Shown here piece by piece: positions 6,001-40,626 of a stretch of 64,000 nt of DNA. Each line of letters starts with the position of its first letter. Position 1 is the first letter of the stretch. Position numbers and translations under genes: made by a program. The stretch lies in contig JAUHZB010000001.1 in the NCBI GenBank assembly GCA_030426125.1, forward strand, positions 222,583-286,582, in the 5' to 3' direction. This DNA is from a bacterium (lineage in GTDB: Bacteria; Patescibacteriota; Saccharimonadia; Saccharimonadales; AWTP1-31). Under the pieces are notes generated by a model, which made no database searches, was not told where the DNA came from, and saw only the letters and a list, made by a program, of their open reading frames with translations.

Positions 6001-8250
6001 GGTGTAGGTGGTTTGAGAAAGTGTTGTGGTAGTAAAGGTATCCGACCAGTCGCCAGCTAGTGTGCTCGGGTATGGATCGATATCCTTTATAGCTTTCACT
6101 CTAAAGTTATAAGAGGTACTCGGTTTAAGGCCTGGGACAAAGGTTTGACTGATTTCAATTCTAGCAATAATGCCATAAAATTCTGTCCACTCAGCGGAGG
6201 CTGACTCTTTGTATTCAACAGCGTAGCTATCGGCGTCGGCAACATCATCCCAATCTAAATCAACTGCTGTTACATTGGGGGTTCCGGTTAGGTTTTGGGG
6301 AGTGCCCGGTGGGTCAGGACAGGTAACGTCTTTACCGGAGTCATTGATTGTCCAGCTATATGTATCGATAATATTTTGTCTAGCATCAGCCGATAGACAG
6401 TAGGTGCTAGTACCTCCATCGAATGTAACGTTAGGTTGTAAGACCAATAGGTTCCAGGCAGATATAGTGTCGTCGTAATTTTCAAAAGATAATCCTGAGC
6501 CTCCAGTGAACATGTTGGTCATATTTGTAACATTAACAATATTCCAATCAGCAAGTGATTGATCGAAGGAAGTTGCTACTGCGAACATTGCTGACATGGT
6601 GGTTACTTCACCTACGTCCCAGCCGCTAATATCTTGATTGAAATCTTCAGCAAACACAAACATACTGGCCATAGTTTCTACATTACTAGTATCCCAATTT
6701 TCCAGAGGTTGGTTAAAGGCGGCTGCAGATCTAAAGGTATCAGTCATTATGGTTACAGATTGGGTATCCCAGTCATTGAGCGGTTGGTTAAAGGCGTCGG
6801 TTTCCTCAAACATCTCATGCAGGGTTGTAAAATTACTAGTATCCCAACTATCTAAAGGCTGATTGAAGGCTTCTGCGTTATAGAACATTTGCTGTGGGTC
6901 GGTTACAGAGCCCATGCTCCAGTTATTAAGCGGTTGGTCAAAGGTCTCGGTGTTAGCAAACATTGCCCTGGTTGAGGTTATGTTGCTTACATCCCAGTGA
7001 TTAATGTCGGAGTTAAATGCAGTTGCTCCATTGAACATATTAGCTAAGCCATATTCTTCTAAACCTGGGTCAGATAAATCGGGAGCATCAACTGCGCTTA
7101 TTTGAACGTTGGTGGCAGCCGAAAATGCACCGTTAAGCTTCTCCCATGGATTTGTCCCCCATTGGACAATGTCAAGGAATTTTTGCTCATCTCTTCCGGC
7201 TCCACTTAAGCCAAAGGAAGGATAATCCCCTCGGATTCTGATAGTGTATGTGCCTGCAACACCAAAGTCATGGCTGAGACCGGTAGTTTGGTTTAGCTGG
7301 TCATAGGTACCATCATTGTCCCAGTCGATATCAAAGTCGAAGGTTCCAATGTCGGCGTCAAGTATTATTGATGTGTCATTAGATAATCCCGGATTATCTG
7401 TTTTCCAGGTAGTAATAAATTCTTCGGGCTGGTATTGACCATTGTAGGTGACTGAATTGTCGCTGGAGGTTGAAGCCTGATTAGTATTGCTTGGGCCATT
7501 CAGGCCAATTACCTGGTCAGCATCAATACTTGGAGTAATGGTTCCGGAAGAGGTAGCCGAGATACGTACTTCAAAATTTGTTGAATCAAACGGACTGATC
7601 TCTGATATAGATTGTACAGCCTGTCCGGGAGCTGTTCCACCTAGAGTAAGATCAGTACTAATAAAACTTACACTATCTATCGCTTCAGAGAAAGAAACAC
7701 TAAAGACTGAAGTATATGAAGGATTAGGATCATCGCTACCAGTTTTCTGATTGATAGTCACCTCAATTGTACTGGCAGCTTCAACATTGGTTATATGGCT
7801 AGATGCAGTGCCCAGGAAAGTTAGGATTATTAGCAGACTCATTGAAGTTACGTAGGTCAGGGGCTTCCACTTGTAGCGCAGTAAGGGCAGGATAACTATC
7901 ATTATGTGGTGATAGAAACTATATTTAATGTCTAGGGCGGTATTCGTTAGATTTAAGCTTTTACTGTGCTGGATGTAATCCATCCATAAATATAAGCTAG
8001 CGCCTAAGATAAGTAGTAACGGTAAACTACTGACAACTATATTTTGTAGCCATAAATTGGAATTACTTAGGTCTTGGCTGAGGTAAGCTGTAATCGCTGG
8101 TATTTTAAGCAGGGCGGTGGTGGCCAGGATCGTGATAACTACCAGTAAAATCGGGATAATGTAGTAGCGGTAGCGAACAAGATAGCGGAATCTATACTTT
8201 ACTAGTACATATCGTAAGTAGTGGGATATTTTTGAGTAGCTATTTTTCAT
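3100..8250 (-). CDS. Giant membrane sensor histidine kinase with an adhesin-like ectodomain (DUF285 repeats, FN3-like and GLUG-like repeats)
   Basis: The track ORF is 3100..8271 (GTG). The ATG at 8250 (MKNSYSKISHYLRY...) aligns with the paralog start and is preferred. Read from the translation, N to C: N-terminal TM helices; Ig/PKD-like modules (DWDNDGTYD...THDFGVAGTYTIRIRG); seven 25-aa DUF285 repeats; FN3-like (PQNLTGTPNVTAVDLDWDDV...YNFRVKA). Next come GGLxG repeats (GGLIG, VGGLVG, VGGIVG, TGGLAG, VGGLIG), a Pro-rich linker, a TM helix, the H-box NHHLNTPV and two more TM helices. The HATPase_c boxes are N (LDNAIRFSP), G1 (DQGPGIP), F (LFQPF) and G2 (GLGLSL). Confidence 0.85.
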   Translation of the reverse strand: MKNSYSKISHYLRYVLVKYRFRYLVRYRYYIIPILLVVITILATTALLKIPAITAYLSQDLSNSNLWLQNIVVSSLPLLLILGASLYLWMDYIQHSKSLNLTNTALDIKYSFYHHIMIVILPLLRYKWKPLTYVTSMSLLIILTFLGTASSHITNVEAASTIEVTINQKTGSDDPNPSYTSVFSVSFSEAIDSVSFISTDLTLGGTAPGQAVQSISEISPFDSTNFEVRISATSSGTITPSIDADQVIGLNGPSNTNQASTSSDNSVTYNGQYQPEEFITTWKTDNPGLSNDTSIILDADIGTFDFDIDWDNDGTYDQLNQTTGLSHDFGVAGTYTIRIRGDYPSFGLSGAGRDEQKFLDIVQWGTNPWEKLNGAFSAATNVQISAVDAPDLSDPGLEEYGLANMFNGATAFNSDINHWDVSNITSTRAMFANTETFDQPLNNWSMGSVTDPQQMFYNAEAFNQPLDSWDTSNFTTLHEMFEETDAFNQPLNDWDTQSVTIMTDTFRSAAAFNQPLENWDTSNVETMASMFVFAEDFNQDISGWDVGEVTTMSAMFAVATSFDQSLADWNIVNVTNMTNMFTGGSGLSFENYDDTISAWNLLVLQPNVTFDGGTSTYCLSADARQNIIDTYSWTINDSGKDVTCPDPPGTPQNLTGTPNVTAVDLDWDDVADADSYAVEYKESASAEWTEFYGIIARIEISQTFVPGLKPSTSYNFRVKAIKDIDPYPSTLAGDWSDTFTTTTLSQTTYTISDCEQFQGMFINRQTLEVNNDIYARYELTSDIDCSETQNWYWSDLDTDDPVGFRVTAYSFAGELDGQGHTVTGIYQNSEELGTYNSVFYNLYGAVIKDITFKDMVSVGGNQIGLMGAGLANFANLASISNVHFNNLRLEVWSGASDEEQTVSGSGGLIGNDSGSNISTSSVTGQILVNRPNGGDIYGPASVGGLVGTSGLQSLELKTVIQKSFSDVSIELDNTSNAAGVGGIVGRGYADIANSYSTGDLSYTTGVIMTGGLAGWLHSATIRDSYSSMNITAVHDPQTQAPVGGLIGLLQSQASPILTGSSVINSFAVGTITAPSDNLGPSAGLIKAVAGDSITLTNNYYDQTRTTQANCYTLSLDGEGSPVDITDSCTTINVDNSLETYFVNNKQNPPLNLWDFDDIWRTEFSTFPTFVGSEGPNPETPGEDPEPIDNPPDPEDPPSPGDVPVSTTQPIAPNTPTNSPTPQRVTNDPIPGLGSPGGESFQFQDIDNTEPKSVSDIASQFISWLLLLILLILTMIYAWRARKQFLSNKQLINALNNLQASKEATDTYIKVVNHHLNTPVAIMSGAVELLNSQSKIPKNSADHLLNTLAHYKQDVSNLSLDAQLAISDSSSSQALVGSNSSSADSGDNQSYLLSLMATIPKSGSALKNPAVFVPIAIVSGALILVVVLFANAQLYQLDLAQQSLQLICLLLICVILAATFKQRETLKIAQNIKQQAIYTQQRLIKQRNDFIDKASSVLSNNYENLKIASAKLTSIPETKTLFNGLSMLSATVASLTSVSRLSQPSSDPPVLNLSQEIAQIANQYSTHASAKKVNIKLDISQNTLAKIQPQELQQIIGSTLDNAIRFSPENTNVIIKAHPVNKHINISITDQGPGIPKDKLDQLFQPFTKTTDVETYNQPGLGLSLYVNKLVVTKLGGDLKATNSKGSGLVVNIRLPREKKLENSAPLLITPKPMFTK
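6472..7149 (-). repeat. Seven tandem 25-aa (75-nt) DUF285/BspA-like coding repeats
   Basis: Units: FNSDINHWDVSNITSTRAMF, FDQPLNNWSMGSVTDPQQMF, FNQPLDSWDTSNFTTLHEMF, FNQPLNDWDTQSVTIMTDTF, FNQPLENWDTSNVETMASMF, FNQDISGWDVGEVTTMSAMF, FDQSLADWNIVNVTNMTNMF. Plus-strand ORFs 6634..6855 and 6638..6862 are antisense shadows. Confidence 0.85.
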
Positions 8251-8416
8251 CAATACTTTAACTGGTCGCACACTTATTTATTCTTAAGCTTATTTTATCA
8301 TGCTTAAGGATGTCTCGGGATTGGAAGAACGGAGTGAGCGAATTAGATTAAGTAAATAGAGTTGACTCAATAAGCACAACGGCTATATAATGTAATCACT
8401 TCTTAAAAACAAAAAA

Positions 8417-9970
8417 ATGAAAATACAAAAAATACCTATTTGGCCGAAGTTAGCTATTGCTGTCTTTGTTGTAGCCGGTAGTTTTATGCTGTTTGGGGGT
8501 CGTGCTGAAGCGGCCACCATTACTGTTGGTGGTGGCTGTACTCTAAGCGATGCCATTACAGCCACAAATAACGATAGTGATGAAGGTAGTTGCGTGAGCG
8601 TTGGGGCTTATGGCGCTGATACTATAAATATCCCAAGTGGCACAACTACCAGAACAGATAATACGCTAGCTACTGATGATCTTAGTATTGTCGGCGCAGG
8701 TGCCGGAACTACTATAGTTGATGGTGACGATAGCTATAGTGGTCTAATTTGCCAACATTCGGGTGGCGGATTGCTAGATTTTTCTATCAGTAACCTGACT
8801 ATCCAAAATACCGGATCAGGTAGCGGGGCCTATCCAATAGCCGCATATAACTGCAACCTTGATTTAGAGAATATTGAAATAACTGATGGAGAAGAAGCTG
8901 TTGGAAATATTTTCTTTACTACCGCCGAAGATGGGGCAACAGCCGATTTGACTGTTAATGATGTATATATCCACGATACAGAAGGTAATGGCTTGACGAT
9001 ACAACTGCAAGGACAGGGTGTTGATGATGCAGTCGATGCCGTGATTGATGGCCTCACGGTGGCTAGTCATGGTGTTAGTGGCCTCACTACCGGCGGAATT
9101 ATGTTAATATCCGGCAATTCTGACACTGCCAGTACCCACACCAGTGATATCTTAGTTCGCAACTCAACTTTTATAGGAGATGACACCTATGATACTTTCG
9201 GCGTGATGGCTCAGACTCAGTCGTCGGTAAACGGAGTCACTGACAATATAGATATTGCACTGCAAAATGTAACCATAGTTGATCATGACATTGCCTCTGA
9301 CTTTCCAGCTTCTGGAGTATTAGCCGCGGCATATGCTGGTAGTGGCGGAAATGCTAATATAGCCTACACTTTAAAGAATGTTCTAATGGCAAATAACACC
9401 GCTGCATCCAGTCCTGCTACTTGTTTAGGGATGCCTTTTGGGGGTGGTGGTACTGAAGTAGCCACCATTACTTCACTGGGTAATAATATAGTAGATGATG
9501 CCAGCTGTAGTTTTGCACAGAGTGGTGACCAGCAAAGTGTCGCCGGCTTGATAGATACCCTTGATGATCCGGCCGCCAACGGTGGTTTTGGAAGAACCTT
9601 AGCACTGCTTGATGGTTCACCGGCTATTGACGGCGGTGGTGTGGTTGCCGGGATTTCTACTGATCAGAGGGGTGTATCTCGACCGCAGGGCTCGGCTTTT
9701 GATGTCGGTTCCTATGAATTAGAGCAAGAATCTAGTGGTGGTGATTCTGAAGAACCAAGCGGTGGCGATCAGCAGGGAAGCAATAACTCCCAGGATTCAG
9801 ATGGCGAAACCACAACACTTGCCGATAGTGGCAGCACTCCCGGTGTACCCGACACCGGCTTTGGCTTTAAGCTTCTAAAAACTAACCCCTTATTAACCTT
9901 AATTGTAAGTACTAGCATATCTGCTGCTTTGTATCTTACAGCCCGTTATTACAAAAGAGCATCTAGCTAA
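8417..9970 (+). CDS. Secreted parallel beta-helix-type repeat protein with a C-terminal VPDTG cell-wall sorting signal
   Basis: Signal peptide (KLAIAVFVVAGSFMLFGGRAEA). An N-terminal GGGCTLSDAITATNND motif of the type seen at the start of beta-helix surface proteins. Gly/Thr/Asn/Asp-rich repeats. C-terminus is VPDTG, a hydrophobic stretch, then RYYKRASS. Confidence 0.75.
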   Translation: MKIQKIPIWPKLAIAVFVVAGSFMLFGGRAEAATITVGGGCTLSDAITATNNDSDEGSCVSVGAYGADTINIPSGTTTRTDNTLATDDLSIVGAGAGTTIVDGDDSYSGLICQHSGGGLLDFSISNLTIQNTGSGSGAYPIAAYNCNLDLENIEITDGEEAVGNIFFTTAEDGATADLTVNDVYIHDTEGNGLTIQLQGQGVDDAVDAVIDGLTVASHGVSGLTTGGIMLISGNSDTASTHTSDILVRNSTFIGDDTYDTFGVMAQTQSSVNGVTDNIDIALQNVTIVDHDIASDFPASGVLAAAYAGSGGNANIAYTLKNVLMANNTAASSPATCLGMPFGGGGTEVATITSLGNNIVDDASCSFAQSGDQQSVAGLIDTLDDPAANGGFGRTLALLDGSPAIDGGGVVAGISTDQRGVSRPQGSAFDVGSYELEQESSGGDSEEPSGGDQQGSNNSQDSDGETTTLADSGSTPGVPDTGFGFKLLKTNPLLTLIVSTSISAALYLTARYYKRASS

Positions 9971-9985
9971 ACTAATAAAGAAACA

Positions 9986-10012
9986 TTGGCACTCTAGTAC
10001 ATCAAGTGCTAA
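9986..10012 (+). promoter_or_regulatory. CIRCE operator (HrcA binding site) upstream of dnaJ
   Basis: TTGGCACTC-N9-AAGTGCTAA versus consensus TTAGCACTC-N9-GAGTGCTAA (16/18 match, exact 9-nt spacer). It overlaps a TAAAAT -10-like hexamer at 10009..10014. Confidence 0.8.
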
Positions 10013-10023
10013 AATATATGGGT

Positions 10024-11124
10024 ATGAGCAAACGAGATTACTACGATGTACTAGGCATTAAAAAAGGTGCCAGTGATGATGAAATAAAGAAGGCTTTTCG
10101 CAAGAAAGCAATTGAACACCATCCAGATAAGCAGGGGGGTGATGAAGCTAAATTCCAGGAAGTCAATGAAGCCTACGAAGTCTTAAAAGATGAACGTAAA
10201 CGGCAACGCTATGATCAGTTTGGCCACGCTGGTGTGGGTAGTAGTGCTTCTAGTGATGGTTCGGCTGGCAATCCATTTGGTGGGGCTGGTGGATTTGGTG
10301 GTCAGAATGTTAATTTTGACTTTGGTGATCTTGGTCTTGGCGATATCTTCGGTAGTTTTTTTGGCGGTGGTCAAAGACAACGTAGCAATAGAGGGCGTGA
10401 TGTTGAAACTACAGTAAATCTTAGTTTTGAAGAAGGTGTATTTGGGCTCGAGAAAGATATTAAAGTAGGCTTGAACGATACTTGTGAACACTGTAAGGGG
10501 ACTACGGCTGAACCGGGTCACGAACTTAAAACCTGCGATACCTGTAAAGGTGCTGGCCAGGTGAATAGAGTAACTAGAACCGTTTTCGGAGATATCCAGC
10601 AAGCTACTGTCTGTCCAACTTGTGATGGTCAGGGTAAAGTGCCGGAGAAAAAGTGCACAGTTTGTCATGGAAAAGGTACTCAGCATAAAACTAAGACCAT
10701 TAAGCTAAAAATACCGGCTGGAATTGATGATGGTGCTACCATTCGCTTGCGTGAGCAAGGGGAAGCAGTTGCCAATGGTCCTAAGGGCGACCTATATGTA
10801 AATATTAGGGTTAAACCGCATAAACACTTCACTCGCGAGGGTGATCTTATCTTAAGCGAAGAACATGTCGATATGGTTTCGGCATCTTTGGGTACAGAAA
10901 TAGATGTTGAGACTGTTGATGGAACGGTGCGTATGAAGGTCCCAGCTGGCACGCAGAGTGGTACTGACTTCAAGTTATCCAGCCATGGCGTTCCTCATCT
11001 TAGAGGAAATGGCCGCGGAGCGCATATAGTAACCTTACTAGTAGATACCCCAACTAAGCTAAGTAAAAAGCAACAAGAACTACTAAAAGAGTTTGCCGGT
11101 AACCCAAAAAAAGGTTTGTGGTAG
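10024..11124 (+). CDS. dnaJ: Molecular chaperone DnaJ
   Basis: J domain with HPD (AIEHHPDKQ), a G/F-rich region and four CxxCxGxG zinc-finger motifs (CEHCKGTT, CDTCKGAG, CPTCDGQG, CTVCHGKG). The track start at 10006 (GTG) lies inside CIRCE, so the ATG at 10024 (MSKRDYYDVLG) is preferred. Confidence 0.95.
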   Translation: MSKRDYYDVLGIKKGASDDEIKKAFRKKAIEHHPDKQGGDEAKFQEVNEAYEVLKDERKRQRYDQFGHAGVGSSASSDGSAGNPFGGAGGFGGQNVNFDFGDLGLGDIFGSFFGGGQRQRSNRGRDVETTVNLSFEEGVFGLEKDIKVGLNDTCEHCKGTTAEPGHELKTCDTCKGAGQVNRVTRTVFGDIQQATVCPTCDGQGKVPEKKCTVCHGKGTQHKTKTIKLKIPAGIDDGATIRLREQGEAVANGPKGDLYVNIRVKPHKHFTREGDLILSEEHVDMVSASLGTEIDVETVDGTVRMKVPAGTQSGTDFKLSSHGVPHLRGNGRGAHIVTLLVDTPTKLSKKQQELLKEFAGNPKKGLW

Positions 11125-11156: not shown

Positions 11157-12209
11157 CTAGGCTACAGTTAGGGCAATATATACACAGTAGGCTATATAGA
11201 GAGCGATCAGGATTAGGCCACTCTTATGTCCGATCTTCCAATTTCGGACCACTAGGAGGAAAAGAGTAGCAACTACAGTTGCGAACAGTAGGATTACACT
11301 AGCACTGAGGTTTGCGGTGCCTACAGATATTGAATCAGACATGAACACAAGAGCTAGGATCCAAGGGAAGCCGAGGCCAAATAGGATATCGAAGATGTTT
11401 GATCCAATAGCATTGCTAACAGCCATATCACCGCGTCCTTGTTTAGCAACAACTATTGAACCGATAAGGTCAGGTATTGAGGTTCCAGCTGCCAGTACGG
11501 TTAGCGCTAGGAAAGTAGAATTAATCGATGCTACGTCGGCAATATATACTATCTGCTCCACAAGTAGCCAGCTAATTCCGGCAATGGCTAGAACAGACAG
11601 TAAAAAAGTTACTAGGTAGAGGCTTGGTTTGCTGGCCGGGTTAGGGATAAATATTTGAATAGTTTTAAAAGTTAGTCTACTCAGTATATTGCCGTCGCTA
11701 TCAGCGCTATGCTGGGGCTCGGCAATTTCTTTATACTTAAACCATTTCCGCCAATTAACCACTGAAAATACATAAACTAAATATAGACCTACAAAAGAGA
11801 TAGCTTCTAGGAGTACAATTTTTCCATCAGAGAAAGATAACAGCAGCAGAAGTATAGTTAAGATATAGAACAGTAGGTCACGTAGAACCGGCTTCCACTG
11901 TAGTTTAACGGCCTTAAACATGGCTGCTGCCCCAATAATTACTAGCACGTTAAAAATAGCAGAACCGACTATCGTTCCAGCTCCAATGTCAGCGTGGTCA
12001 CTGCCGGCAATTCCTAGAATTGCAAAAAGTGAAGTGAAAAACTCTGGAGCGCTGGAGCCCATGGCTAGCAGAGTAGCTCCAGAGGCATCACTGCTTAAAC
12101 GTAGCTTGTCTGCTAATTTATCTATGGCTGGCACGAAGAAATCTTCGGTTAAGATAGCTAAGACATAGAAAGCTAGTAGTATTATTACTATTGATAATAT
12201 TAGTTGCAT
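11157..12209 (-). CDS. Ca2+/cation antiporter (CaCA, YrbG/NCX-like)
   Basis: Polytopic membrane protein with the two alpha-repeat motifs GSSAPEFFTS and GTSIPDLIGS. Confidence 0.8.
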   Translation of the reverse strand: MQLILSIVIILLAFYVLAILTEDFFVPAIDKLADKLRLSSDASGATLLAMGSSAPEFFTSLFAILGIAGSDHADIGAGTIVGSAIFNVLVIIGAAAMFKAVKLQWKPVLRDLLFYILTILLLLLSFSDGKIVLLEAISFVGLYLVYVFSVVNWRKWFKYKEIAEPQHSADSDGNILSRLTFKTIQIFIPNPASKPSLYLVTFLLSVLAIAGISWLLVEQIVYIADVASINSTFLALTVLAAGTSIPDLIGSIVVAKQGRGDMAVSNAIGSNIFDILFGLGFPWILALVFMSDSISVGTANLSASVILLFATVVATLFLLVVRNWKIGHKSGLILIALYIAYCVYIALTVA

Positions 12210-12240
12210 CGACTAGCTATTATACTACGTCGATAAAATT

Positions 12241-12849
12241 TTATTGAACAAGAAATTGGGTTTTTCCGTGATATATCTCTGATCTCACGTTATCGCCAAG
12301 ACGAGTCCAGCGCTCTGCGAGCTTCTTTCGATCCAGTTGTCTATTTGTGACGTACGGACTTTTAGTGAAATATTCTTGAAAGGTATCAATGAATAAATTT
12401 GCGGTAACTAGGGGATCTGCTACTTGCCTGTCGAATTCCGGGCACCAAAATATATCGGTCTTACTGGTTAATTCTGGTTGATGACTCTTTCTAGGATCAT
12501 TGTAGGTAACAGTACTTACATTAGCGCGATGCCGCATGAAAGTTAGCATTGTCATAGCTCCTAAAACAGTGACTATGGTTTCTTGGTTTTCTTGGTATAC
12601 ATCGATGGTTTCAGCCATAGCAACCGCTAGAGTCGATGCTATTTGACCATGGCGAGTTATAAAGTCTGCACCTCGAAATTCTTTACGGTTGTAATCAATA
12701 ACCTCACCGGCTAGGTAATAGTGCCTTGTTTCATCTTCGCGAGTTTCATTTTCCCAGCATTTCTCAAACATAAATTCAGATCGGTCTATTTCGGATTCTG
12801 ATAAAGGTGGATCTAGCGGTGATGGTGGTTCTATAGGTAAATTTGCCAT
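12241..12849 (-). CDS. Hypothetical cytoplasmic protein
   Basis: Clean 202-aa ORF with an ATG start. I recognise no motif. Confidence 0.55.
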   Translation of the reverse strand: MANLPIEPPSPLDPPLSESEIDRSEFMFEKCWENETREDETRHYYLAGEVIDYNRKEFRGADFITRHGQIASTLAVAMAETIDVYQENQETIVTVLGAMTMLTFMRHRANVSTVTYNDPRKSHQPELTSKTDIFWCPEFDRQVADPLVTANLFIDTFQEYFTKSPYVTNRQLDRKKLAERWTRLGDNVRSEIYHGKTQFLVQ

Positions 12850-12977
12850 AAAATTTTGTGTAAGAATAAGGGATAGATGATTTATGCTATATTAGCATTT
12901 TATATGACTATTGTCAATGTGCTGATGTTCTGAATATATCCGTCGGTTATGTACTAACTATGCTTTACATGGAAGAG

Positions 12978-15152
12978 TTAAGAAGTGCAAGTCTGTTTAT
13001 TTGAACACTGTTTACCAATCAACACTAAGCTAGTTGATGCTAGAGCAATAGCAGTAAATGTTATCAGTAGTGTGCTTTGTCCTGTATCTGCAAGTGGGCC
13101 AAGTGATTCAGAGCTATCTGCTCCATTTTGTGATGTGTCAGCTAATATAGTTTGATCACCTAGAACTTCACTAAATTCACTGGTTGCCCCAAAACCATCA
13201 GTTGAATTATCTATCTCAGTTGTGGTTGCAGATATGGCATAAGATCCACTTGTAAAGTCTTCTGGTATTGATAATGCTACATTATTGCTGATGGAGCTGG
13301 AAGCGATGATAGTGCTTCCTAAAAATATTTGTCCTTCACCATACCCGCTTGGATCTGCAGTTTCATTTGCGAAAAACTCTACTCTATAGCCATTGGGTGC
13401 ACTATCGTCTACATCGAGATCAAAGTTAATATCTAGATTTCCTTCAGTTGCAGAGGTTGAGTTAATGACAGGGAAGTTTAGGTAATCGTTAGGACCAGTG
13501 TCGGTGTCACCTGCGTCGTTCGTTGTAGCACCAGTATTTATATCTGGACTTTGATTACCATCAGAGTCATCTGCGTTGTCGATGCCGATTCCACCGTTAC
13601 TGTGTATTTTATTTCCAATAATTGAATTACTATCTGGGAACAGTGAGCCTATAGAAATAGAAAAGTTAGAAATACCGATTCCGTCATTGTAGGCTATTAT
13701 GTTCCCATCAGAGTCATCAATACCACCTATTGTGTTGTTAGTTGCCGATGAAGTAATCGCCATTCCTGCCCCACCTATTCCGATACCAGAATCTTCGCCA
13801 TTTAGATTTGTCCCTAGGTTGTTTGATTTAATGATATTATTATCACCCAAGATTGCAAAACCGACAAAACTACTGCCAGAAACGATATTGCTTCTAATAA
13901 TATTATTATCGCCGATAATCGAAATCCCTGATATGGTATTGCCAAGATCTATAGAAGTGTTACGGTTTGTGCCAATAATGTTGTTTGATATTGTTGAAGA
14001 ATTTCCGGTCTGTGTTATACCATGAGTATTACTTGAAACAACATTGTGTGCGTTAGTAGTTAAACCCCCAATGACTACATTATCACCTGAGCTGCCTATG
14101 CCGGCACCCGCATTACCTATATCTGCATTGCCAGTATAATCTGTGCCGACTAAATTACCTTGTATAACCACTTGTCCGCCAGCGGATATACCGTTTGAGC
14201 CATTTCCAGATATAACGTTGGCAGCCCCGCTATCCGTTCCTCCAATTAAGTTGTCTGTTCCAGTGGCTGAATCAACTATTACAATTCCCGAGCTTTCGTT
14301 TGCAATCGCGGAGGTTCCTGCTGCATTCAGCCCTATATAATTACCTTGGATTATCCAGTCACTACAATCTGTCCCGATAGATATTCCTTCGTTACCACCA
14401 CCACCACCACCATCGTTATTACCAGATATTAAATTACGATCAGATGGTGAGGTCCCACCAACTCGTATTCCGTTGTTTGTATGTGCAGAGTTTGTTCCAA
14501 CACCTCTTAGGTTATTTCCTTCTTCGATAAGTCCTGTTGGGTTGGTGCCAATATAGTTACCAGCTATAACAACATCGTCTACAGTATTTATAAAAATACC
14601 GTCTTGAGGCGATTGGTTAATTACTAGACCTCTTATCTGACTCGCATTTGCGCCAGCCTGTAAATTCAAGACACTTTGTACTCCACCGCTTCCATCTATC
14701 TCAATTAACAGTGTCCCATTTAGCGGATTTGGAGAAACGGCTGTATTTTCTCGTGAGCCTGGTTGTGAATAACCATTAATTATTATTGTTTCAGTTATGG
14801 CTGGAAGTGAGGATGACAATGCTATTGTATAGCCATCTTGGCCACCATTAGTAAAATCTGCGGTTTCACCTATATTGAAATTAATGGTGCTGGTATCTGA
14901 ATTTGAGTTGGCTTCTTGGATTGCCGCCCGTAGAGTGCAGTTACCAGAACCGTCATCACATTCACCATTACCAACATTACTATCAGCGCTGTCGAGAGTA
15001 GAGTCAACGGTTATACCATCACCAAGATTAGTGTCGGCTCCAAGAACCGTTGATGGTTTAGTAACGTAGAACACCAACATAATAATAGTAACTACTACGA
15101 TAGCCACTAAAGTTAGTGAAATTCTATTTTTAAAAATTGTATAATTGGGCAT
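12978..15152 (-). CDS. Secreted beta-helix repeat surface protein with a C-terminal LADTG sorting signal
   Basis: N-terminal signal anchor; a CTLRAAIQEANSNSDTSTINF motif; long runs of NxI(I/S)GN-type beta-helix repeats. C-terminus is LADTG, a hydrophobic stretch, then a KQCSNKQ tail. The ATG overlaps the upstream CotH stop (TAATG at 15150..15154). Confidence 0.8.
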   Translation of the reverse strand: MPNYTIFKNRISLTLVAIVVVTIIMLVFYVTKPSTVLGADTNLGDGITVDSTLDSADSNVGNGECDDGSGNCTLRAAIQEANSNSDTSTINFNIGETADFTNGGQDGYTIALSSSLPAITETIIINGYSQPGSRENTAVSPNPLNGTLLIEIDGSGGVQSVLNLQAGANASQIRGLVINQSPQDGIFINTVDDVVIAGNYIGTNPTGLIEEGNNLRGVGTNSAHTNNGIRVGGTSPSDRNLISGNNDGGGGGGNEGISIGTDCSDWIIQGNYIGLNAAGTSAIANESSGIVIVDSATGTDNLIGGTDSGAANVISGNGSNGISAGGQVVIQGNLVGTDYTGNADIGNAGAGIGSSGDNVVIGGLTTNAHNVVSSNTHGITQTGNSSTISNNIIGTNRNTSIDLGNTISGISIIGDNNIIRSNIVSGSSFVGFAILGDNNIIKSNNLGTNLNGEDSGIGIGGAGMAITSSATNNTIGGIDDSDGNIIAYNDGIGISNFSISIGSLFPDSNSIIGNKIHSNGGIGIDNADDSDGNQSPDINTGATTNDAGDTDTGPNDYLNFPVINSTSATEGNLDINFDLDVDDSAPNGYRVEFFANETADPSGYGEGQIFLGSTIIASSSISNNVALSIPEDFTSGSYAISATTTEIDNSTDGFGATSEFSEVLGDQTILADTSQNGADSSESLGPLADTGQSTLLITFTAIALASTSLVLIGKQCSNKQTCTS

Positions 15153-17980
15153 TATTTTGTCGTCCCTCTGTTCGCTAGTTTATATAATAGCATAAGCATC
15201 GAAGACGTAACAATCATAGTAATACCTATAAATAGAATATTTGTTGTCTGACTTTTTTCGGTATTTTGTATTTGGTTAGCATTTAAATTAGTTTGTTCGT
15301 TATTGCCCGGAATCTTTTTTGAAATATCTTCATCTTTTTCTTTTGCTTGGTCAATAACTGTATTGTCGTTGGCAAATGAACCATTGTCTCTAGCCTTTTC
15401 TGTTGATATTTCTGGGCCTGAGCTGCTATCAACTTCATTTATTGTCGTGTTCGTATAAACTTTGGAGCCATCAGAGCGTCTCAAGCCATATTCACTATCT
15501 CCTGCGACTTGTCCAATATATTCTGCGAGAACTAGCTTGCCGCTACCAATCTCTTGTCTAAACATAGCGTCATCACTTACTACATACCCAGTACCATTTT
15601 TCGGTAGAACACTTCCTCCAGGGAAAGTGAAATTTGTACCATCTATTGTCCAGTTAGATATATCAACTGCAATATTATTAGGATTACTTAGTTTAATATA
15701 GTTATAATTTGCGTTTTGTGAAGCCGTGTATGAAATATCTTCTATATCAATAATCACATTGTTTAATTGGGCTGCAGGAATTAGACCTCTGCTAACATAG
15801 TTCGTTAGGAACCGATCTCTTAGTTTGTCTAGGCTGAAGCGCAGTATGGAAAACCTATTTGCAGGAGTGTACGGTTCATAAGTGGCATGTTGGAATGGTA
15901 AGTCTTCCAGTCGCAAGCCTCCACCAGTTTTCTGGTCCAGAATAGATTGCATTACAAGTGGGTTATCAGGATCTTGTCCGACCACATCAGTTATGTAATC
16001 TCTGACTGGTTGAATATTTGTATCATATTCATAGGTATACCACTTTTGATAATCCAAATCTGATGCAGTTAAACTTGTGGCTGCTTCATCGTCTAGCCAT
16101 TCTTGGATAGTATTATTAGCATAAATTTCATCAACTAATGTCCTTACCCTTCGCTTATACATTTCTTGTAATTCTGGATCATCCCATATAGCAGTGAATA
16201 CATTTCGATCATCTACAGAAATTGATGGAACAACATCATAAGGGTTAATCAGGTCATCGTATCCCTGCGGGGGAACCCCAAGACCAATATTGTGCACACT
16301 CATTGTTAGGTCAAGGTCCCAAGGTAAGAATGACCAACGTTCACGATCACCAGCATTGTAAATACTGAATGTATTTGATGCCAGACTCCAATCGTGACTT
16401 CTTGCAACAGACTGAGCTGCCATATAATTTATTATGTTTGTAATTTCAATATTATCTCTTAAATAATCTAACTTAGCTCCTCCTGATAGTGAGCTTAGTG
16501 CACTCTTTAAATTTTGTAGTCTGGTTGTATCATTATTATCTGGCTGCTTTTTTTCAAACTCATCTTCTATAATTTCTGCATCCTTATATGCTGGATTTCT
16601 GTCCAGCCACTCTTTTTCATATTTTTCAGCTAATGTATAGGCTCCTTCAAATTCGCCATTTTTTTGCAGTTGAATTTTTTTAACTTGTGGCACTGGGAAC
16701 CCAGCGTGTTTAAAAATCCTCCATGATAACAGTGAAACTATATACTCATTATTCGGAAAATCTGTATTTAGATGAAACTCGTTAAGCGGGTATTCTAATA
16801 CCCCTGGTATAGCAAGCTTGTGGTTTTTCGGCAATTTAATTTTGAAAGGTAATTTAGGAAAAGTCCTAGAGTATTCACCCTTAATTCTTACCTCAGAATT
16901 ATCTATAACCTGATTGCCGTAGACAATAACACAGGAAAAATAGTCTTCCTGATCATCTGGTGTGGCGATCAGATCAGTATAGTCACTTTCGGAAATAAAC
17001 CACTCCAGTATTGGGGTAGATCCAACTTCTTGAGATGGGTCTACCACCACATAACCCTGGTAATTAATGCTATCATCATTGCCAGGTAGTCCAGCTGTGT
17101 CTGAGCCTGGACTGGTGGCTTCTACTCTATACCTCACCAGTGAGCCAGCTGTTTGGGTTGGTATTTGTCCGCTGTAGATGCCGTCACTAGCGGTTTGGTC
17201 TCCATTGTTCCCGCTGTCATTCATGGCTATTGTTTCTTCATCTTCAAACATGACTTTGTACACAAGATTTACTGTGTCAACATTGCTCGCTTGTACGGTT
17301 ATGGTTGGAGTGTCGGTTGGTTGGATAGCCTCTAGACTACTTGTGTTTTTTGGTGTACTTAGACTAGACAGTTCTGGCAGGTCAGCAGAGGAGAGAGAGT
17401 TTTCAGTGTTTGGTGTACCACCATCACTAAGGCTGGCTCCCCATGAAGTGGATAGACTGTTATCGAGACTGGAGTCTTTGAGTTCTAATGAAGGACCTAG
17501 TTCATCTGGTGTGACTGGCCAGGGAGATACGTCAAGATAGTCAACACTATCTACGAGGGTATTGGAAGAATCTCGTAGTTCTATGTTTTCACCACCATTG
17601 CTGAGGTTGCCACTGTACTCTGCTAGGACTGTTTGACTGTAGGTTGTAGTGGTTTGAGATGCAGAGGGTGAAACTAAAACGAAGTCATTGGCACCGATAC
17701 TCATACCGGAAGAAAAACATAAACTAATGCCGTCAGTGAAACACCAACCATTTAGGTCTATTGGTGAGCCAGTAGTATTGTATAGTTCTAGAAATTCATC
17801 GTCTTCGTTATCTGAAGATGGATGGTACATAAGTTCATTAATGACTACATCACCACTAGCTGCGGAGGCGAGGTTAGGGTTAATGGTTATGTGCAAAAGA
17901 GAACAGACTAGGCTAGCTAGCAATACAATTACTATAGTTAGTTGATTGTATTTAATTGTCAGAAATAAACGACTTTGCAT
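15152..17980 (-). CDS. CotH-family (atypical kinase) protein with N- and C-terminal lamin-tail domains and a C-terminal TM anchor
   Basis: Signal peptide. LTD motif VVINELMYHPSSDNEDDEFLELYNTTGSPIDLNGWCF. CotH-type motif RWSFLPWDLDLTMS. A second LTD-like segment (YIKLSNPNNIAVDISNWTIDGTNFTFPGG). C-terminal hydrophobic helix plus KLANRGTTK. Confidence 0.75.
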   Translation of the reverse strand: MQSRLFLTIKYNQLTIVIVLLASLVCSLLHITINPNLASAASGDVVINELMYHPSSDNEDDEFLELYNTTGSPIDLNGWCFTDGISLCFSSGMSIGANDFVLVSPSASQTTTTYSQTVLAEYSGNLSNGGENIELRDSSNTLVDSVDYLDVSPWPVTPDELGPSLELKDSSLDNSLSTSWGASLSDGGTPNTENSLSSADLPELSSLSTPKNTSSLEAIQPTDTPTITVQASNVDTVNLVYKVMFEDEETIAMNDSGNNGDQTASDGIYSGQIPTQTAGSLVRYRVEATSPGSDTAGLPGNDDSINYQGYVVVDPSQEVGSTPILEWFISESDYTDLIATPDDQEDYFSCVIVYGNQVIDNSEVRIKGEYSRTFPKLPFKIKLPKNHKLAIPGVLEYPLNEFHLNTDFPNNEYIVSLLSWRIFKHAGFPVPQVKKIQLQKNGEFEGAYTLAEKYEKEWLDRNPAYKDAEIIEDEFEKKQPDNNDTTRLQNLKSALSSLSGGAKLDYLRDNIEITNIINYMAAQSVARSHDWSLASNTFSIYNAGDRERWSFLPWDLDLTMSVHNIGLGVPPQGYDDLINPYDVVPSISVDDRNVFTAIWDDPELQEMYKRRVRTLVDEIYANNTIQEWLDDEAATSLTASDLDYQKWYTYEYDTNIQPVRDYITDVVGQDPDNPLVMQSILDQKTGGGLRLEDLPFQHATYEPYTPANRFSILRFSLDKLRDRFLTNYVSRGLIPAAQLNNVIIDIEDISYTASQNANYNYIKLSNPNNIAVDISNWTIDGTNFTFPGGSVLPKNGTGYVVSDDAMFRQEIGSGKLVLAEYIGQVAGDSEYGLRRSDGSKVYTNTTINEVDSSSGPEISTEKARDNGSFANDNTVIDQAKEKDEDISKKIPGNNEQTNLNANQIQNTEKSQTTNILFIGITMIVTSSMLMLLYKLANRGTTK

Positions 17981-18064: not shown

Positions 18065-19588
18065 CTATATTTCGTTAAGTACTGTAATCCTAGCACCCAG
18101 ACTATTGAGCCTTTTAGCCAGGTCTTCATAACCCCGGTTAATAGTGTAAACATTTCGAAGTTTAGATTTTCCGCTAGCAGCTAACATACCAATTAGCAGT
18201 AAACTAGCTGGGCGCAGTGCCGGTGGGCAAACTACATCAGCGGCCGTAAATTTTGTTTTTCCTTTGATGTAAATCCGATGTGGGTCAACTAGTTCAATGT
18301 TGGCGCCGATCTTGGTAAGTTCGGTGTAATAGATAGCGCGGTTTTCGAACATCCAATCATGGATAAATGTTCGGCCTTTGCTAACGGCAGCAATTGGCAC
18401 AAAGTAGGGGATTGAATCGGGGTTAATGCCGGGCCAGAGGTTGGGATGAATCTTATCCTTAGGTGCTTGTAGTTTACCGCGGTGTTTTTCTATTGTCAGA
18501 TCTACTAGATCGACCACGCCATTAGTAGCTTTGTATTTTTTCGTTGCTTTAAACTTTAAGCCAATTACTTCTAGTTTATATAATTCAAGCGCTATCCAAT
18601 CTATTGGAACGCGCTTAATAGTGATTGATGAGTTGGTAGCCACGGCAGCTGATATAAAGAACATCGCCTCGATTGGATCTTCGGTGGGAGCGAAACTAAC
18701 ATTCTTTTTAATGTTGCTGGAGCCTTCAACGGTTAACACTGAAGAGCCAATACCCTGAATTTTAACTCCGAGTTTCTGGAGGAATAGGCAGAGGTCTTGG
18801 ACCATGTAATCAGCGCTGGCATTGTGAATAATTGTTGTTCCGTTGCTTCTAGCTGCGGCCATTAGGGCATTGTTGGTTACAGTATTTCCAGCTTCGTATA
18901 GTACGATCCGCTCAGTCGGTAGTTTACGGTTGACTTTGACGTCATAGAATCCGGTGTGAGCTTTGACATTAACACCGAAGTTTTGTAGAGCTAGTAGATG
19001 GGGCTCAACGGTACGTTCGCCTAGCTTGCAACCACCAGCAAAAGGTATCTTAAAGTGTTTGTGCTCATGCAGTAAAGGTCCGAGGAACATTAGCACGCTT
19101 CTTGTGGCTTTGGCTGAGCTGACATTAATTTTACTTAGATCAAGTTGGGCTGGGCGGTTAATTTCGATGTCGTTATTAGCTAGCCACTTTATTTTTACAC
19201 CGATACTTTCTAGTACTTCAATAATGCGGTGAACTTCTTCAATTTTAGGGAAGGCCTTAAACCTAGTAACTCCATGGTTAAGTAAGCTGGCACACAGTAG
19301 GGCTACGGCTGCATTCTTGCTGGTTTTTAGAGTGATCTCGCCTTTTAGTTCACGACCACCTTCAATTTGTAGATTTAGACCACGATTACCAACCTGAATG
19401 ATGGGCTTATTGAGAACATCACTAATTCTAGCTAAAGTTTCTAGGCTTAAATTTTGGTTACCGTGCTCAATACGGTTAACCGCCGACTGGCTAGTGTTTA
19501 GTTGTTTAGCGAAACTAGCCTGCGTTAGGCCGCGCTCGTGACGTAGCTTATAGATTAAATTTCCGATCTTTTGGTTAGTGGAGGCCAT
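18065..19588 (-). CDS. murA: XRE-family HTH domain fused to UDP-N-acetylglucosamine 1-carboxyvinyltransferase (MurA)
   Basis: The first ~66 aa form an HTH (RGLTQASFAKQLNTSQSAVNRIEHG). The remainder is colinear with MurA: KGEITLKTSKNAA, the catalytic Cys loop FAGGCKLGERTV, and C-terminal INRGYEDLAKRLNSLGA. Confidence 0.85.
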   Translation of the reverse strand: MASTNQKIGNLIYKLRHERGLTQASFAKQLNTSQSAVNRIEHGNQNLSLETLARISDVLNKPIIQVGNRGLNLQIEGGRELKGEITLKTSKNAAVALLCASLLNHGVTRFKAFPKIEEVHRIIEVLESIGVKIKWLANNDIEINRPAQLDLSKINVSSAKATRSVLMFLGPLLHEHKHFKIPFAGGCKLGERTVEPHLLALQNFGVNVKAHTGFYDVKVNRKLPTERIVLYEAGNTVTNNALMAAARSNGTTIIHNASADYMVQDLCLFLQKLGVKIQGIGSSVLTVEGSSNIKKNVSFAPTEDPIEAMFFISAAVATNSSITIKRVPIDWIALELYKLEVIGLKFKATKKYKATNGVVDLVDLTIEKHRGKLQAPKDKIHPNLWPGINPDSIPYFVPIAAVSKGRTFIHDWMFENRAIYYTELTKIGANIELVDPHRIYIKGKTKFTAADVVCPPALRPASLLLIGMLAASGKSKLRNVYTINRGYEDLAKRLNSLGARITVLNEI

Positions 19589-28044: not shown

Positions 28045-28125
28045 AAATAACCCCCTATTTAAGTTAAATTGTAATATTTTATTAATATTTCGGATATTTG
28101 TATATCCAAGTAAATAATACAAAAA

Positions 28126-28152
28126 CTAGCACTCTCATGTCAAGAGTGCTAA
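28126..28152. promoter_or_regulatory. CIRCE operator in the hsp20 / xfp divergent intergenic region
   Basis: CTAGCACTC-N9-GAGTGCTAA (17/18 to consensus, 9-nt spacer). It lies 82 nt upstream of the hsp20 ATG and 54 nt upstream of the xfp ATG. Confidence 0.85.
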
Positions 28153-28205
28153 TTGGCCTTATCGTCTGTTATTTAACCTCTAATTTTAGTACAATAAGCA
28201 TAACC

Positions 28206-40054: not shown

Positions 40055-40626
40055 TACGCTGTTACCTCGATTAGCTCAAAAGTAAACAGTCTGCGTTGCT
40101 CAAACCAGGCTCCGCTACAAGTTTGCACGGTTAATATTGCTGGCCCTTTGTATTCAAATAAAGAGGTGTCATTTGGTTCAACATCTTTTACAGACCTAAG
40201 TATATAGTGGAATACAGAACCTTCTTTAGTGGTGATTGATGCTTTAGTTCCTACTTGCAGGTCGACCATTGGACCAAATACTTCAGGTTTGTTATGGCCG
40301 TATATGAAAGTATTGCCTGATTGGTTATTTGGTTTGGGAGTAATAAGAGCGTGATGTGCAGAGTCTGAACTTAGTGTCCATTCTTGGGTTTCAGGCTTGT
40401 ATACTCCATCTTGAATATCTGTAGATAAGTTAATCTCAGGAATTTGTAGCGACTCAGGGCTGCCTTCTGTGTAGTCGGGCAGTTTTGTGTCGGGCTTTTG
40501 TATCTCAACCTGTTGCACAGAAAAGGCGTCAGCTGCTCTTGGCTTAGGCTTAATAGCGTAAATAACCCCAGTAATTGCTAATATATTAAATACAGCAATT
40601 ACAACCATTATTTTTACTAGACTCAT
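40054..40626 (-). CDS. Sortase family transpeptidase
   Basis: N-terminal TM anchor, His motif FIYGHN, Cys motif LTVQTCSG and the downstream Arg (EQRRL). The stop overlaps the GT2 ATG (TAATG). Confidence 0.85.
   Translation of the reverse strand: MSLVKIMVVIAVFNILAITGVIYAIKPKPRAADAFSVQQVEIQKPDTKLPDYTEGSPESLQIPEINLSTDIQDGVYKPETQEWTLSSDSAHHALITPKPNNQSGNTFIYGHNKPEVFGPMVDLQVGTKASITTKEGSVFHYILRSVKDVEPNDTSLFEYKGPAILTVQTCSGAWFEQRRLFTFELIEVTA

Follow-up and report, generated by a model that had tools for sequence, protein, structure and literature searches.

Extracellular CotH proteins are abundant, but no function has been defined for any of them. How a kinase would work outside the bacterial cell is a puzzle, since a phosphate donor is not evident in that setting. 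What such a protein might do is the question raised by a locus in the 64,000 nucleotide stretch of DNA analysed here (the window), in which the gene for a 942-aa protein with a CotH core and lamin-tail domains (LTDs) overlaps that for a 724-aa beta-helix protein (bh724). There is nothing unusual in the LTD-CotH architecture itself, which is very common and already catalogued, with about 10,800 clusters (50% identity) matching the 942-aa protein at E<=1e-10, and an identical protein is present in public data with Pfam matches and without a name. A link between CotH and Saccharibacteria or Patescibacteria was not found in the literature. The reading that we favour, at a probability of roughly 45%, is that the two proteins form a Saccharibacteria-specific surface module in which a surface-anchored CotH enzyme would phosphorylate co-displayed LAXTG proteins. 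A preliminary description of this DNA had suggested that the CotH protein could phosphorylate surface proteins or aid attachment to a host, and had taken the organism to be non-sporulating and probably host-associated. The closest genomes are Candidatus Saccharibacteria, which are probably epibiotic, and this view of the organism stands to that extent, with the amendment that the host would be another bacterium and not an animal cell. The features on which the argument draws are listed in Table 1.

Table 1. Features of the CotH/bh724 locus and the sortase gene, with window coordinates (AF2, AlphaFold2 model).
Feature	Position	Strand	Basis
LTD-CotH-LTD protein, 942 aa	15152..17980 (including stop)	minus	ORF + Pfam
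Signal-peptide-like segment, aa 1-40 (...NLASA/AS)	17861..17980	minus	hydropathy + AF2 helix 11-32
LTD 1, aa 39-148	17537..17866	minus	best PF00932 stretch (Pfam)
Beta-sandwich linker, aa ~200-312	17045..17383	minus	AF2 strands 226-312, high pLDDT
CotH kinase-like core, aa 364-666	15983..16891	minus	Pfam PF08757 + Foldseek
D530, catalytic Asp equivalent (B. cereus D224 = B. subtilis D228)	16391..16393	minus	alignment
N536, conserved Asn downstream of catalytic Asp (B. cereus N229)	16373..16375	minus	alignment
D555-L-D557 of PWDLD motif (D555 = B. subtilis D251)	16310..16318	minus	alignment
LTD 2, aa ~744-841	15458..15751	minus	Pfam PF00932 + AF2 strands 745-849
C-terminal TM helix, aa 913-936	15173..15244	minus	hydropathy + AF2 helix 917-936
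TAATG stop/start overlap of CotH and bh724 genes	15150..15154	minus	sequence
CSLREA-type right-handed beta-helix surface protein, 724 aa (bh724)	12978..15152	minus	ORF + homologues + AF2
bh724 CSLREA-like N-terminal motif, aa 47-82 (...GNCTLRAAIQEAN)	14907..15014	minus	TIGR04214 (below cutoff) + homologue conservation
bh724 C-terminal beta-sandwich, aa 557-670	13143..13484	minus	AF2 strands 562-669 + conserved motifs
bh724 sorting signal, LADTG + hydrophobic + K-containing tail	13008..13094	minus	motif + hydropathy
 LADTG, aa 687-691	13080..13094	minus	
 hydrophobic segment, aa 694-715	13008..13073	minus	
Sortase gene, 190 aa	40054..40626	minus	Pfam PF04203, E=4.3e-16

The Pfam CotH profile (PF08757) matches the 942-aa protein with 118.8 bits (cutoff 23.8, E=4.8e-34) over profile positions 1-314 of 322, and the LTD profile (PF00932) matches in two stretches totalling 99.4 bits. 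The second LTD is borderline: a scan restricted to the C-terminal 249 aa gave 34.5 bits, where the cutoff is 34.3. The AF2 model of the protein (pLDDT 81.2, pTM 0.73) is matched in Foldseek by the Ig folds of lamin B1 and lamin A/C (3jt0, 1ifr) with TMt of 0.64-0.65, the LTD aligned being unspecified, and its non-CotH parts are matched by CBM56, Big_2 and Ig-like modules; three Ig-like modules are present in all. The beta-sandwich linker gave no match in the Pfam scan and carries at aa 251-280 the NCBIfam ‘choice-of-anchor X’ motif NF041940 (31.1 bits; cutoff 25).

Hydropathy reveals two hydrophobic stretches in the 942-aa protein (aa ~5-36 and ~913-936), each with a helix in the model. Homologues have comparable N-termini with A-x-A right before a conserved VVINELMY, and the N-terminal signal would presumably be cleaved. 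The C-terminal TM helix follows a disordered linker (aa 851-912; low pLDDT at aa 851-922) and is itself followed by the basic tail NRGTTK. The signal-like N-terminus, the TM helix and the basic tail together place the domains outside the cell, in keeping with the extracytoplasmic topology first proposed. Neither LAXTG nor LPXTG precedes the TM helix, where the C-terminus reads ...NTEKSQTTNILFIGITMIV..., unlike the orthologues P0003, P0004, P0017, P0019 and P0028, in which LAXTG is present. Orthologue C-termini have either LA[DNQES]TG and a TM segment or no anchor at all, and the anchorless orthologues would be secreted. In the 942-aa protein the motif was either lost or never acquired.

The best PDB matches of the 942-aa model are to B. 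cereus CotH (5jda/5jd9; E~1e-16, probability 1.00, TMt 0.61-0.65). A PDB search with the single sequence gave a marginal match (E=0.009) and a 31-sequence profile was needed, the sole PDB match of which was B. cereus CotH 5jd9 (E=4.5e-22). The RWSFLPWDLDL motif, which the preliminary description had assigned to the CotH core, does lie within the Pfam CotH region and contains D555. This residue aligns to D247 of B. cereus CotH, in which the two Asp residues are spaced by 23, the same as from 228 to 251 in B. subtilis. The B. subtilis mutants D228Q and D251A are both inactive (PMC7821199). Both D530 and D555 are invariant in 31 homologues and, in a set of 120 homologues reaching down to about 30% identity, D530 is retained in 118 and N536 and D555 in 119 each. 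Also conserved among the 120 are K376, R548, R610 and R611 of the core, the mapping onto characterised CotH residues having covered the Asp/Asn/Asp set. The near-invariance of this set and of the basic residues argues for selection on catalysis. Judged by HMM, modelled fold and catalytic residues, the protein can be assigned to the CotH family; it is a putative kinase, and its substrate and phosphate donor, which are considered below, are likewise putative. The Pfam check proposed with the preliminary description bore out its CotH and LTD assignments, and the catalytic-residue check showed these residues to be retained.

The likeness to Bacillus CotH (5JD9/5JDA) extends to Pfam family, fold and the equivalents of D228, the Mg-binding D251 and the intervening Asn, although identity over the core is only about 17%. 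Bacillus CotH, from a spore former, has one domain and ~360 aa and resides in the cytoplasm of the mother cell, whereas the 942-aa protein has export and anchor signals, two LTDs and a beta-sandwich, and belongs to a non-sporulating lineage. Its neighbours are bh724 and housekeeping genes and not cotB/cotG-type substrates with SKR repeats, which speaks against its being a functional orthologue of the spore-coat protein.

The partner, bh724, has more than 4500 homologues, named ‘CSLREA domain-containing’ or ‘right-handed parallel beta-helix repeat-containing’. The Pfam scan of bh724 itself gave no match, its close homologues carry PF13229/PF05048, and a search of the PDB with its sequence returned nothing at E<=1. 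TIGR04214 scores 22 bits, under the cutoff of 25; across 34 homologues, C72, T73, R75, A77 and N82 do not vary. The AF2 model (pLDDT 84.9) consists of a beta-helix and a C-terminal beta-sandwich in which the motifs NDYLNFPV, YRVEFFAN and GFGATSEFS are conserved. The C-terminus, with a tail containing two Lys and with L687, T690 and G691 at least 90% conserved, fits the definition of LAXTG followed by a hydrophobic segment and a positive tail, and LAXTG is the signal of class E sortases (PMC5148588). The substrates of these enzymes, such as the Streptomyces chaplins, have LA-x-TG, a hydrophobic segment and a basic tail, as do bh724 and many of the CotH orthologues. A sortase gene lies 25 kb from bh724 and resembles in tblastn the sortases that flank the CotH homologues of two other loci (L084, L087); its product is a likely candidate for processing the LADTG signal. 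Genes for a GT2 and a deacetylase are found beside the sortase gene, 20 kb from the pair. The original account of the partner as a beta-helix protein with LADTG agrees with both the sequence and the model.

The junction of the two genes reads ...ACAAAATAATGCCC..., the TAA stop and the ATG having one A in common, and the minus-strand ORFs confirm the overlap described at the outset. The case for coupling is now stronger than had been claimed, as the pair is kept across divergent Saccharibacteria loci. A bh724-family gene directly adjoins the CotH gene in 11 of 13 Saccharibacteria-type loci, which are phylogenetically related and do not amount to 11 independent events. This conserved adjacency is new here. 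The outer neighbours differ throughout, being murA/SHMT here, a T4SS and an integrase in L082, glycolysis genes in L085, restriction-modification in L092 and lepA in L093, and the stop/start overlap recurs (1 nt here, 17 nt in L082, 4 nt in L092). Several bh724-family copies surround the CotH genes of L084, L087 and L088. The two loci without an adjacent copy are L089 and L091; the translated neighbour in L089 ends in the LAXTG-type motif LATTG and that in L091 is without such a signal. Two apparent fusions of beta-helix and CotH proteins among public gene calls, P0047 (1628 aa) and P0036 (1604 aa), were rejected as Rosetta-stone evidence because each has an internal LAxxG, TM segment and basic tail followed by a new signal peptide, indicating that neighbouring genes had been merged by the gene caller; they count as adjacency evidence only, and both gene orders are seen. 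A universal partner of LTD-CotH proteins was likewise rejected. In loci of Planctomycetota, Actinomycetota, Acidimicrobiales and Sedimentisphaerales the neighbours are heterogeneous and include weak dockerin/cohesin matches, laminin-G, metallo-beta-lactamase, metallophosphoesterase, a second LTD-CotH paralogue and efflux components. As no constant partner is seen in these phyla, the pairing does not define the chemistry of the family. A scan for promoters and terminators gave counts no better than those of shuffles; as weak evidence, it returned no terminator-like site between the CotH and bh724 genes, and a promoter-like site at 12917..12889, upstream of the gene after bh724.

In the surface module that we favour, the 942-aa protein would be an enzyme of the CotH family of Fam20C-like atypical kinases, anchored in the membrane as a type I protein and exposed at the surface. 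It would run from a signal peptide through LTD, beta-sandwich, CotH core, second LTD and a disordered stalk of ~60 aa to the TM helix and a short, basic tail in the cytoplasm. The bh724 gene would be translationally coupled to that of the enzyme, and its product would be exported and probably joined to peptidoglycan by sortase via LADTG. Ser/Thr residues of LAXTG surface proteins displayed alongside the enzyme would be phosphorylated by its CotH core, and the LTD and beta-sandwich domains would hold it in place on the envelope or its partner. The first candidate substrate would be the adjacent bh724, for example its acidic Ser-rich stalk. This choice parallels B. subtilis, where the cotB-cotG-cotH cluster provides a precedent for a kinase gene adjoining its substrate genes (PMC7821199). 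Adjacency could, however, reflect co-regulation of surface proteins and not a relation of enzyme to substrate, and no kinase assay of any extracellular bacterial CotH was found in the literature. To our knowledge there is no evident source of ATP outside a monoderm cell. B. subtilis CotH acts in the mother-cell cytoplasm and Fam20C in the ATP-supplied Golgi, and it is in this ATP-importing lumen that both Fam20C and Fam20B work, unlike the 942-aa protein. These enzymes have a distantly related atypical kinase fold (PMC7821199), and their targets are proteins or glycans that have left the cytosol; no Fam20 protein was among the direct sequence or fold matches of the 942-aa protein. At some pel loci cotH is accompanied by a polyphosphate polymerase and DUF4956 (PMC7112168). 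A polyphosphate donor system of this kind (VTC-type polymerase, DUF4956) was sought with Pfam in 43 ORFs of the window and none was present among them.

The alternative that survives best, although we consider it unlikely, is that the CotH core phosphorylates a cell-wall or host polysaccharide or another non-protein polymer, that bh724 binds or processes the same glycan, and that the LTD and beta-sandwich domains are polymer-binding modules. Among the secretory-pathway relatives of CotH, Fam20B and POMK phosphorylate sugars. The bh724 model resembles only polysaccharide-active beta-helices, namely the mannuronan C-5 epimerases AlgE4 and AlgG, phage tailspikes and pectate or capsule lyases, but these Foldseek matches are weak (E 1e-4 to 1e-3, TMt <=0.52). 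The CBM56, Big_2 and Ig-like matches of the 942-aa model would also suit a glycan-directed enzyme, as would the laminin-G, cohesin/dockerin, PKD and CBM-type modules that relatives in other phyla carry or neighbour. Further support comes from the cellulosome, where CotH relatives occur with LTD, Fn3 and dockerin modules (PMC6083626), and from Pel exopolysaccharide loci, at which CotH genes are accessory and lie beside the polyphosphate polymerase (PMC7112168). The cellulosome proteins (C. thermocellum Cthe_0239 and CseP, Cthe_0044; R. cellulolyticum Ccel_1101) have secreted cores with LTDs, as here, and are without defined function (PMC6083626, PMC12774918). They are attached by dockerins, whereas the 942-aa protein is attached by a predicted TM helix and its orthologues by LAXTG, and, unlike them, it has a beta-helix partner and comes from an epibiont-type genome that is non-cellulolytic. 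Against phosphorylation of a glycan, every CotH enzyme characterised so far is a protein Ser/Thr kinase (PMC7821199), and genes for glycan synthesis are absent beside the pair, the GT2 and deacetylase genes being 20 kb off. The phosphate-donor problem holds equally.

Rather less probable is a non-catalytic adhesin or scaffold, in which the 942-aa protein would bind the surface of the bacterial host or bh724 and the kinase fold would be a structural platform only. The lack of obvious extracellular ATP would then present no difficulty, and the three Ig-like modules are typical of adhesins. The organism is probably an epibiont, and the epibiotic growth of a cultivated Saccharibacterium requires multiple adhesins (PMC10633639). 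The CotH proteins of Mucorales (Rhizopus CotH2/3/7, Mucor CotH3/4) share with the 942-aa protein a signal peptide and surface display; they are mostly extracellular and some are ligands of host GRP78 (PMC9973265). They differ from it in being eukaryotic, GPI-anchored and without LTDs. The GRP78-binding motif (M/Q/A)(E/M/A)QTNDGAY... (PMC9973265) is missing from the 942-aa translation, which has only the loose QTASDGIY (aa ~262-269) inside the choice-of-anchor X motif, and without catalysis it is hard to see why the Asp/Asn/Asp set and several basic residues should be nearly invariant in 120 homologues. That the two are simply neighbouring surface-protein genes of a genome with many genes of that sort, co-transcribed for convenience, is very improbable: the size of the bh724 family, its multiple copies at three loci, its missing adjacent copy at two and the lack of such a partner in other phyla would allow it, but adjacency in most loci despite wholly different outer neighbours, recurrent stop/start overlaps and a single bh724-family gene in the whole window all speak against it.

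For experiments on extracellular CotH proteins, a compact and conserved module of two genes, in an epibiont with a small genome, is a cleaner handle than the giant multidomain versions of Planctomycetes or Verrucomicrobia or those of cellulosomes. The pair supplies an obvious candidate partner or substrate and two mutable catalytic residues, and genetic tools exist in related cultivated Saccharibacteria. Were the 942-aa enzyme inactive, it would be one more annotated surface protein. Were it active, phosphorylation of bacterial surface proteins or glycans would be established, and this might bear on the attachment of epibiont to host. A more speculative extension, which we regard as improbable, is that the pair constitutes an extracytoplasmic phosphorylation system of epibiotic Saccharibacteria, in which the targets of the surface-anchored kinase would be adhesin-like beta-helix proteins displayed by sortase, or the host surface that they contact, with nucleotide or polyphosphate available only at the epibiont-host interface. 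If true, such a system would regulate attachment, and Fam20C-type phosphorylation in the secretory pathway would have a first counterpart in bacteria.

By every test run on its sequence and predicted structure, the 942-aa protein (CotH942) belongs to the CotH family, and it is not a spore-coat CotH. Pfam searches place a CotH domain (PF08757) at aa 364-666 (E=4.8e-34; 118.8 bits vs a cutoff of 23.8) and LTD domains (PF00932) at aa 39-148 and aa ~744-841, the second barely over threshold when scanned alone (34.5 vs 34.3 bits). A further motif, 'choice-of-anchor X' (aa 251-280), was matched in NCBIfam. The two LTDs and CotH core of the preliminary description are supported by these searches, and that annotation proved correct and well read. 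A PDB search with the single sequence barely detected B. cereus CotH (E=0.009), and with a profile of 31 homologues this was the sole match (E=4.5e-22). The AlphaFold2 model built on the 31-homologue alignment (pLDDT 81.2, pTM 0.73) has 5jda and 5jd9 as its best PDB matches (E~1e-16; target TM 0.61-0.65), and the Ig folds of lamin B1 and A/C match a flanking LTD (TM about 0.64-0.65).

Profile alignment pairs B. cereus D224, N229 and D247 with D530, N536 and D555 of CotH942. Because its 23-residue spacing matches, the B. cereus D224/D247 pair was equated with D228/D251 of B. subtilis CotH, where the mutations D228Q and D251A inactivate the kinase (PMC7821199). D530, N536 and D555 are invariant in the 31-sequence alignment and are kept in 118, 119 and 119, respectively, of the best 120 homologues (identity down to about 30%), among which K376, N441, R548, W549, R610 and R611 are similarly conserved. 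Failure of the HMM search and loss of catalytic residues had been named as refuting outcomes; neither was seen, as the Pfam HMM supports CotH and the three residues are kept.

Hydrophobic stretches are confined to aa ~5-36 and ~913-936, in agreement with model helices at 11-32 and 917-936, the latter preceded by a disordered stalk (851-912) and followed by an NRGTTK tail. The N-terminal segment ends NLASA|AS right before the conserved VVINELMY, and homologues are alike. These features agree with the signal peptide and C-terminal TM anchor proposed previously; we infer that the signal peptide is cleaved and the anchor type I, with every domain outside. Orthologues take three forms, ending in LA[DNQES]TG, a TM segment and a basic tail, in a plain TM segment (as CotH942), or without an anchor at about 770 aa, and each is compatible with an extracytoplasmic protein.

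The CotH gene and that of its beta-helix partner (bh724) are both present as originally read, meeting at ACAAAATAATGCCC, where one base is common to both codons, so that the TAA stop of the first overlaps the ATG of the second by one base. They lie in a co-directional run of, in order, HTH-MurA, CotH, the beta-helix gene, a 202-aa ORF and a Na/Ca exchanger, with G+C ~40% throughout and no compositional break. HTH-MurA (507 aa) is a full-length MurA (UDP-GlcNAc 1-carboxyvinyltransferase; NF006873, 340 bits) with an XRE-type HTH_3 DNA-binding domain (aa 12-63) fused to it; it is unusual for a cell-wall enzyme to carry a transcription-factor domain. Neither Pfam nor NCBIfam gives a match to the 202-aa ORF, and no relatives of it were detected in other CotH loci; it may be transcribed separately from the pair, as a promoter-like site (TTGACA-17-TAATAT with TG) precedes it. 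The window also encodes a sortase, acetate kinase (391 aa) and phosphoketolase (XFP, 816 aa), the last overlapping the acetate kinase start, and many of its genes lack a family match. A 1723-aa ORF carries DUF285 repeats (E=2e-61) together with Fn3 and a GLUG motif, and at its C-terminus the histidine-kinase ATPase domain HATPase_c; from its sequence, it resembles a giant sensor kinase with extensive repeats outside the cell.

Features of the window and their positions
Feature	Position	Strand	Remarks
1723-aa ORF	3100..8271	-	
Second surface protein, 517 aa	8417..9970	+	
202-aa ORF	12241..12849	-	directly downstream of the pair
Promoter-like site	12917..12889		
bh724, beta-helix gene	12978..15152	-	724-aa ORF
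CotH gene	15152..17980	-	942-aa ORF
HTH-MurA	18065..19588	-	directly upstream of CotH
Phosphoketolase/acetate kinase	28098..31711	+	
Sortase-GT2-deacetylase run	37092..40626	-	stop/start overlaps at 40054 and 38780/38783
Sortase, 190 aa	40054..40626	-	in the overlapping run

The exact protein occurs once, unnamed, on a 289,771-bp NCBI contig and a Logan contig, and its nearest genome loci belong to Candidatus Saccharibacteria MAGs (41% and 35% identity). Of 13 distinct loci of Saccharibacteria type, 11 have a bh724-family gene (29-56% identity, tblastn) immediately beside the CotH gene. In seven of them (the window, L002, L003, L082/83, L085/86, L092 and L093) it lies downstream in the same direction, and in L088 and L090 it lies upstream, again co-directional; in L084 and L087 it is upstream and divergent, and CotH is flanked by sortase genes as well. 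In L089 the neighbour is an SdrD_B/SpaA-type protein ending LATTG, and in L091 it is unrelated and its end is not LAXTG-type. Translated C-termini of the adjacent surface proteins carry LA-x-TG-type signals except in L087 (…VVAATG…). Start/stop overlaps recur (1 nt in the window, 17 nt in L082, 4 nt in L092), the genes beyond the pair differ wholly (murA/SHMT, T4SS/integrase, glycolysis, restriction-modification, lepA), no bh724 paralogue was found elsewhere in the 64-kb window, and in 12 further homologue pairs the longest contigs are identical in size. Together these observations suggest that the linkage is under selection, although the 13 loci are mutually related. Two Logan homologues, P0036 (1604 aa) and P0047 (1628 aa), have both genes called as one ORF with no stop between, each half having a signal peptide and sorting signal of its own. 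They were rejected as fusions and are merged gene calls, since an internal sorting signal is followed by a new signal peptide in each; sequencing errors or the gene caller's use of an alternative genetic code could account for them.

bh724 has no Pfam match and a sub-threshold CSLREA_Nterm match (22 vs 25 bits). Its homologues (>4500) are named 'CSLREA domain-containing' or 'right-handed parallel beta-helix repeat-containing' by their sources, and many contain PF13229 or PF05048. The model (pLDDT 84.9, pTM 0.81) comprises a long beta-helix (aa ~45-530) and a beta-sandwich (aa 557-670), and the C-terminus has LADTG (aa 687-691) ahead of a hydrophobic segment and a tail that contains Lys, as expected of the LADTG beta-helix protein described earlier. 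Class E sortases use LAXTG as their sorting signal (PMC5148588), and in the bh724 family acidic, Ser-rich stalks precede this motif. The window's sortase shares its overlapping run with two further genes, for a 424-aa GT2 glycosyltransferase and a 563-aa polysaccharide deacetylase-domain protein, and thus looks coupled to apparent exopolysaccharide synthesis/modification genes. The second surface protein combines an N-terminal motif of CSLREA-like type (GGGCTLSDAITATN) with a 'choice-of-anchor Q' domain (67 bits), and at its C-terminus LADSG and VPDTG precede a TM segment and basic tail; its sorting motif departs from LAXTG, and tblastn detected no similarity to bh724.

Given the near-invariant catalytic set, the likeliest role for CotH942 is that of a phosphotransfer enzyme. 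As the pairing is conserved and translationally coupled, the likeliest candidate for its substrate or working partner is bh724, or the surface that bh724 binds. This resembles B. subtilis cotH, which adjoins its substrates cotB and cotG. More speculatively, a Fam20C-like kinase could target the acidic Ser-rich stalk. This reading is weakest on the phosphate donor; neither an ATP supply nor a polyphosphate system is evident. A glycan-directed phosphotransferase is rather unlikely, yet it draws on the polysaccharide type of the partner, whose weak PDB matches are all polysaccharide-active beta-helices (AlgE4, AlgG epimerases, phage tailspikes, lyases), and on family associations: LTD/Fn3/CotH proteins are cellulosome components 'without any defined function', extracellular kinase activity being described as unexpected (PMC6083626, PMC12774918), and Pel polysaccharide loci have cotH-like genes with polyphosphate polymerase, DUF4956 and DUF4832 (PMC7112168), all three absent from the 64-kb window. 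A shade less probable is a non-catalytic adhesin resembling the CotH proteins of Mucorales, which are secreted or GPI-anchored and in some cases bind host receptors (PMC9973265); their QTNDGAY motif is not present in CotH942. That the pair share nothing beyond co-expression is improbable.

The LTD-CotH-LTD architecture has been catalogued before and is very common, with relatives in Actinomycetota, Planctomycetota, Verrucomicrobiota, Myxococcota and other phyla, often much longer and with Fn3, PKD and cadherin-like modules. An exhaustive search gave 21,696, 10,810 and 2,605 clusters at 50% identity (E<=1e-3, 1e-10 and 1e-30), partly LTD-only matches. An Acidimicrobiales MAG (L009) carries two LTD-CotH paralogues, at 7669..10324 and 11286..14057, within 4 kb of one another and beside a calcineurin-like phosphoesterase; tandem duplication of the family therefore occurs in Actinomycetota. 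No constant neighbour was found in the loci examined from other phyla. The Saccharibacteria-specific pairing of CotH with a putative CSLREA-type beta-helix LAXTG protein is a modest new observation, and offers an experimental handle.
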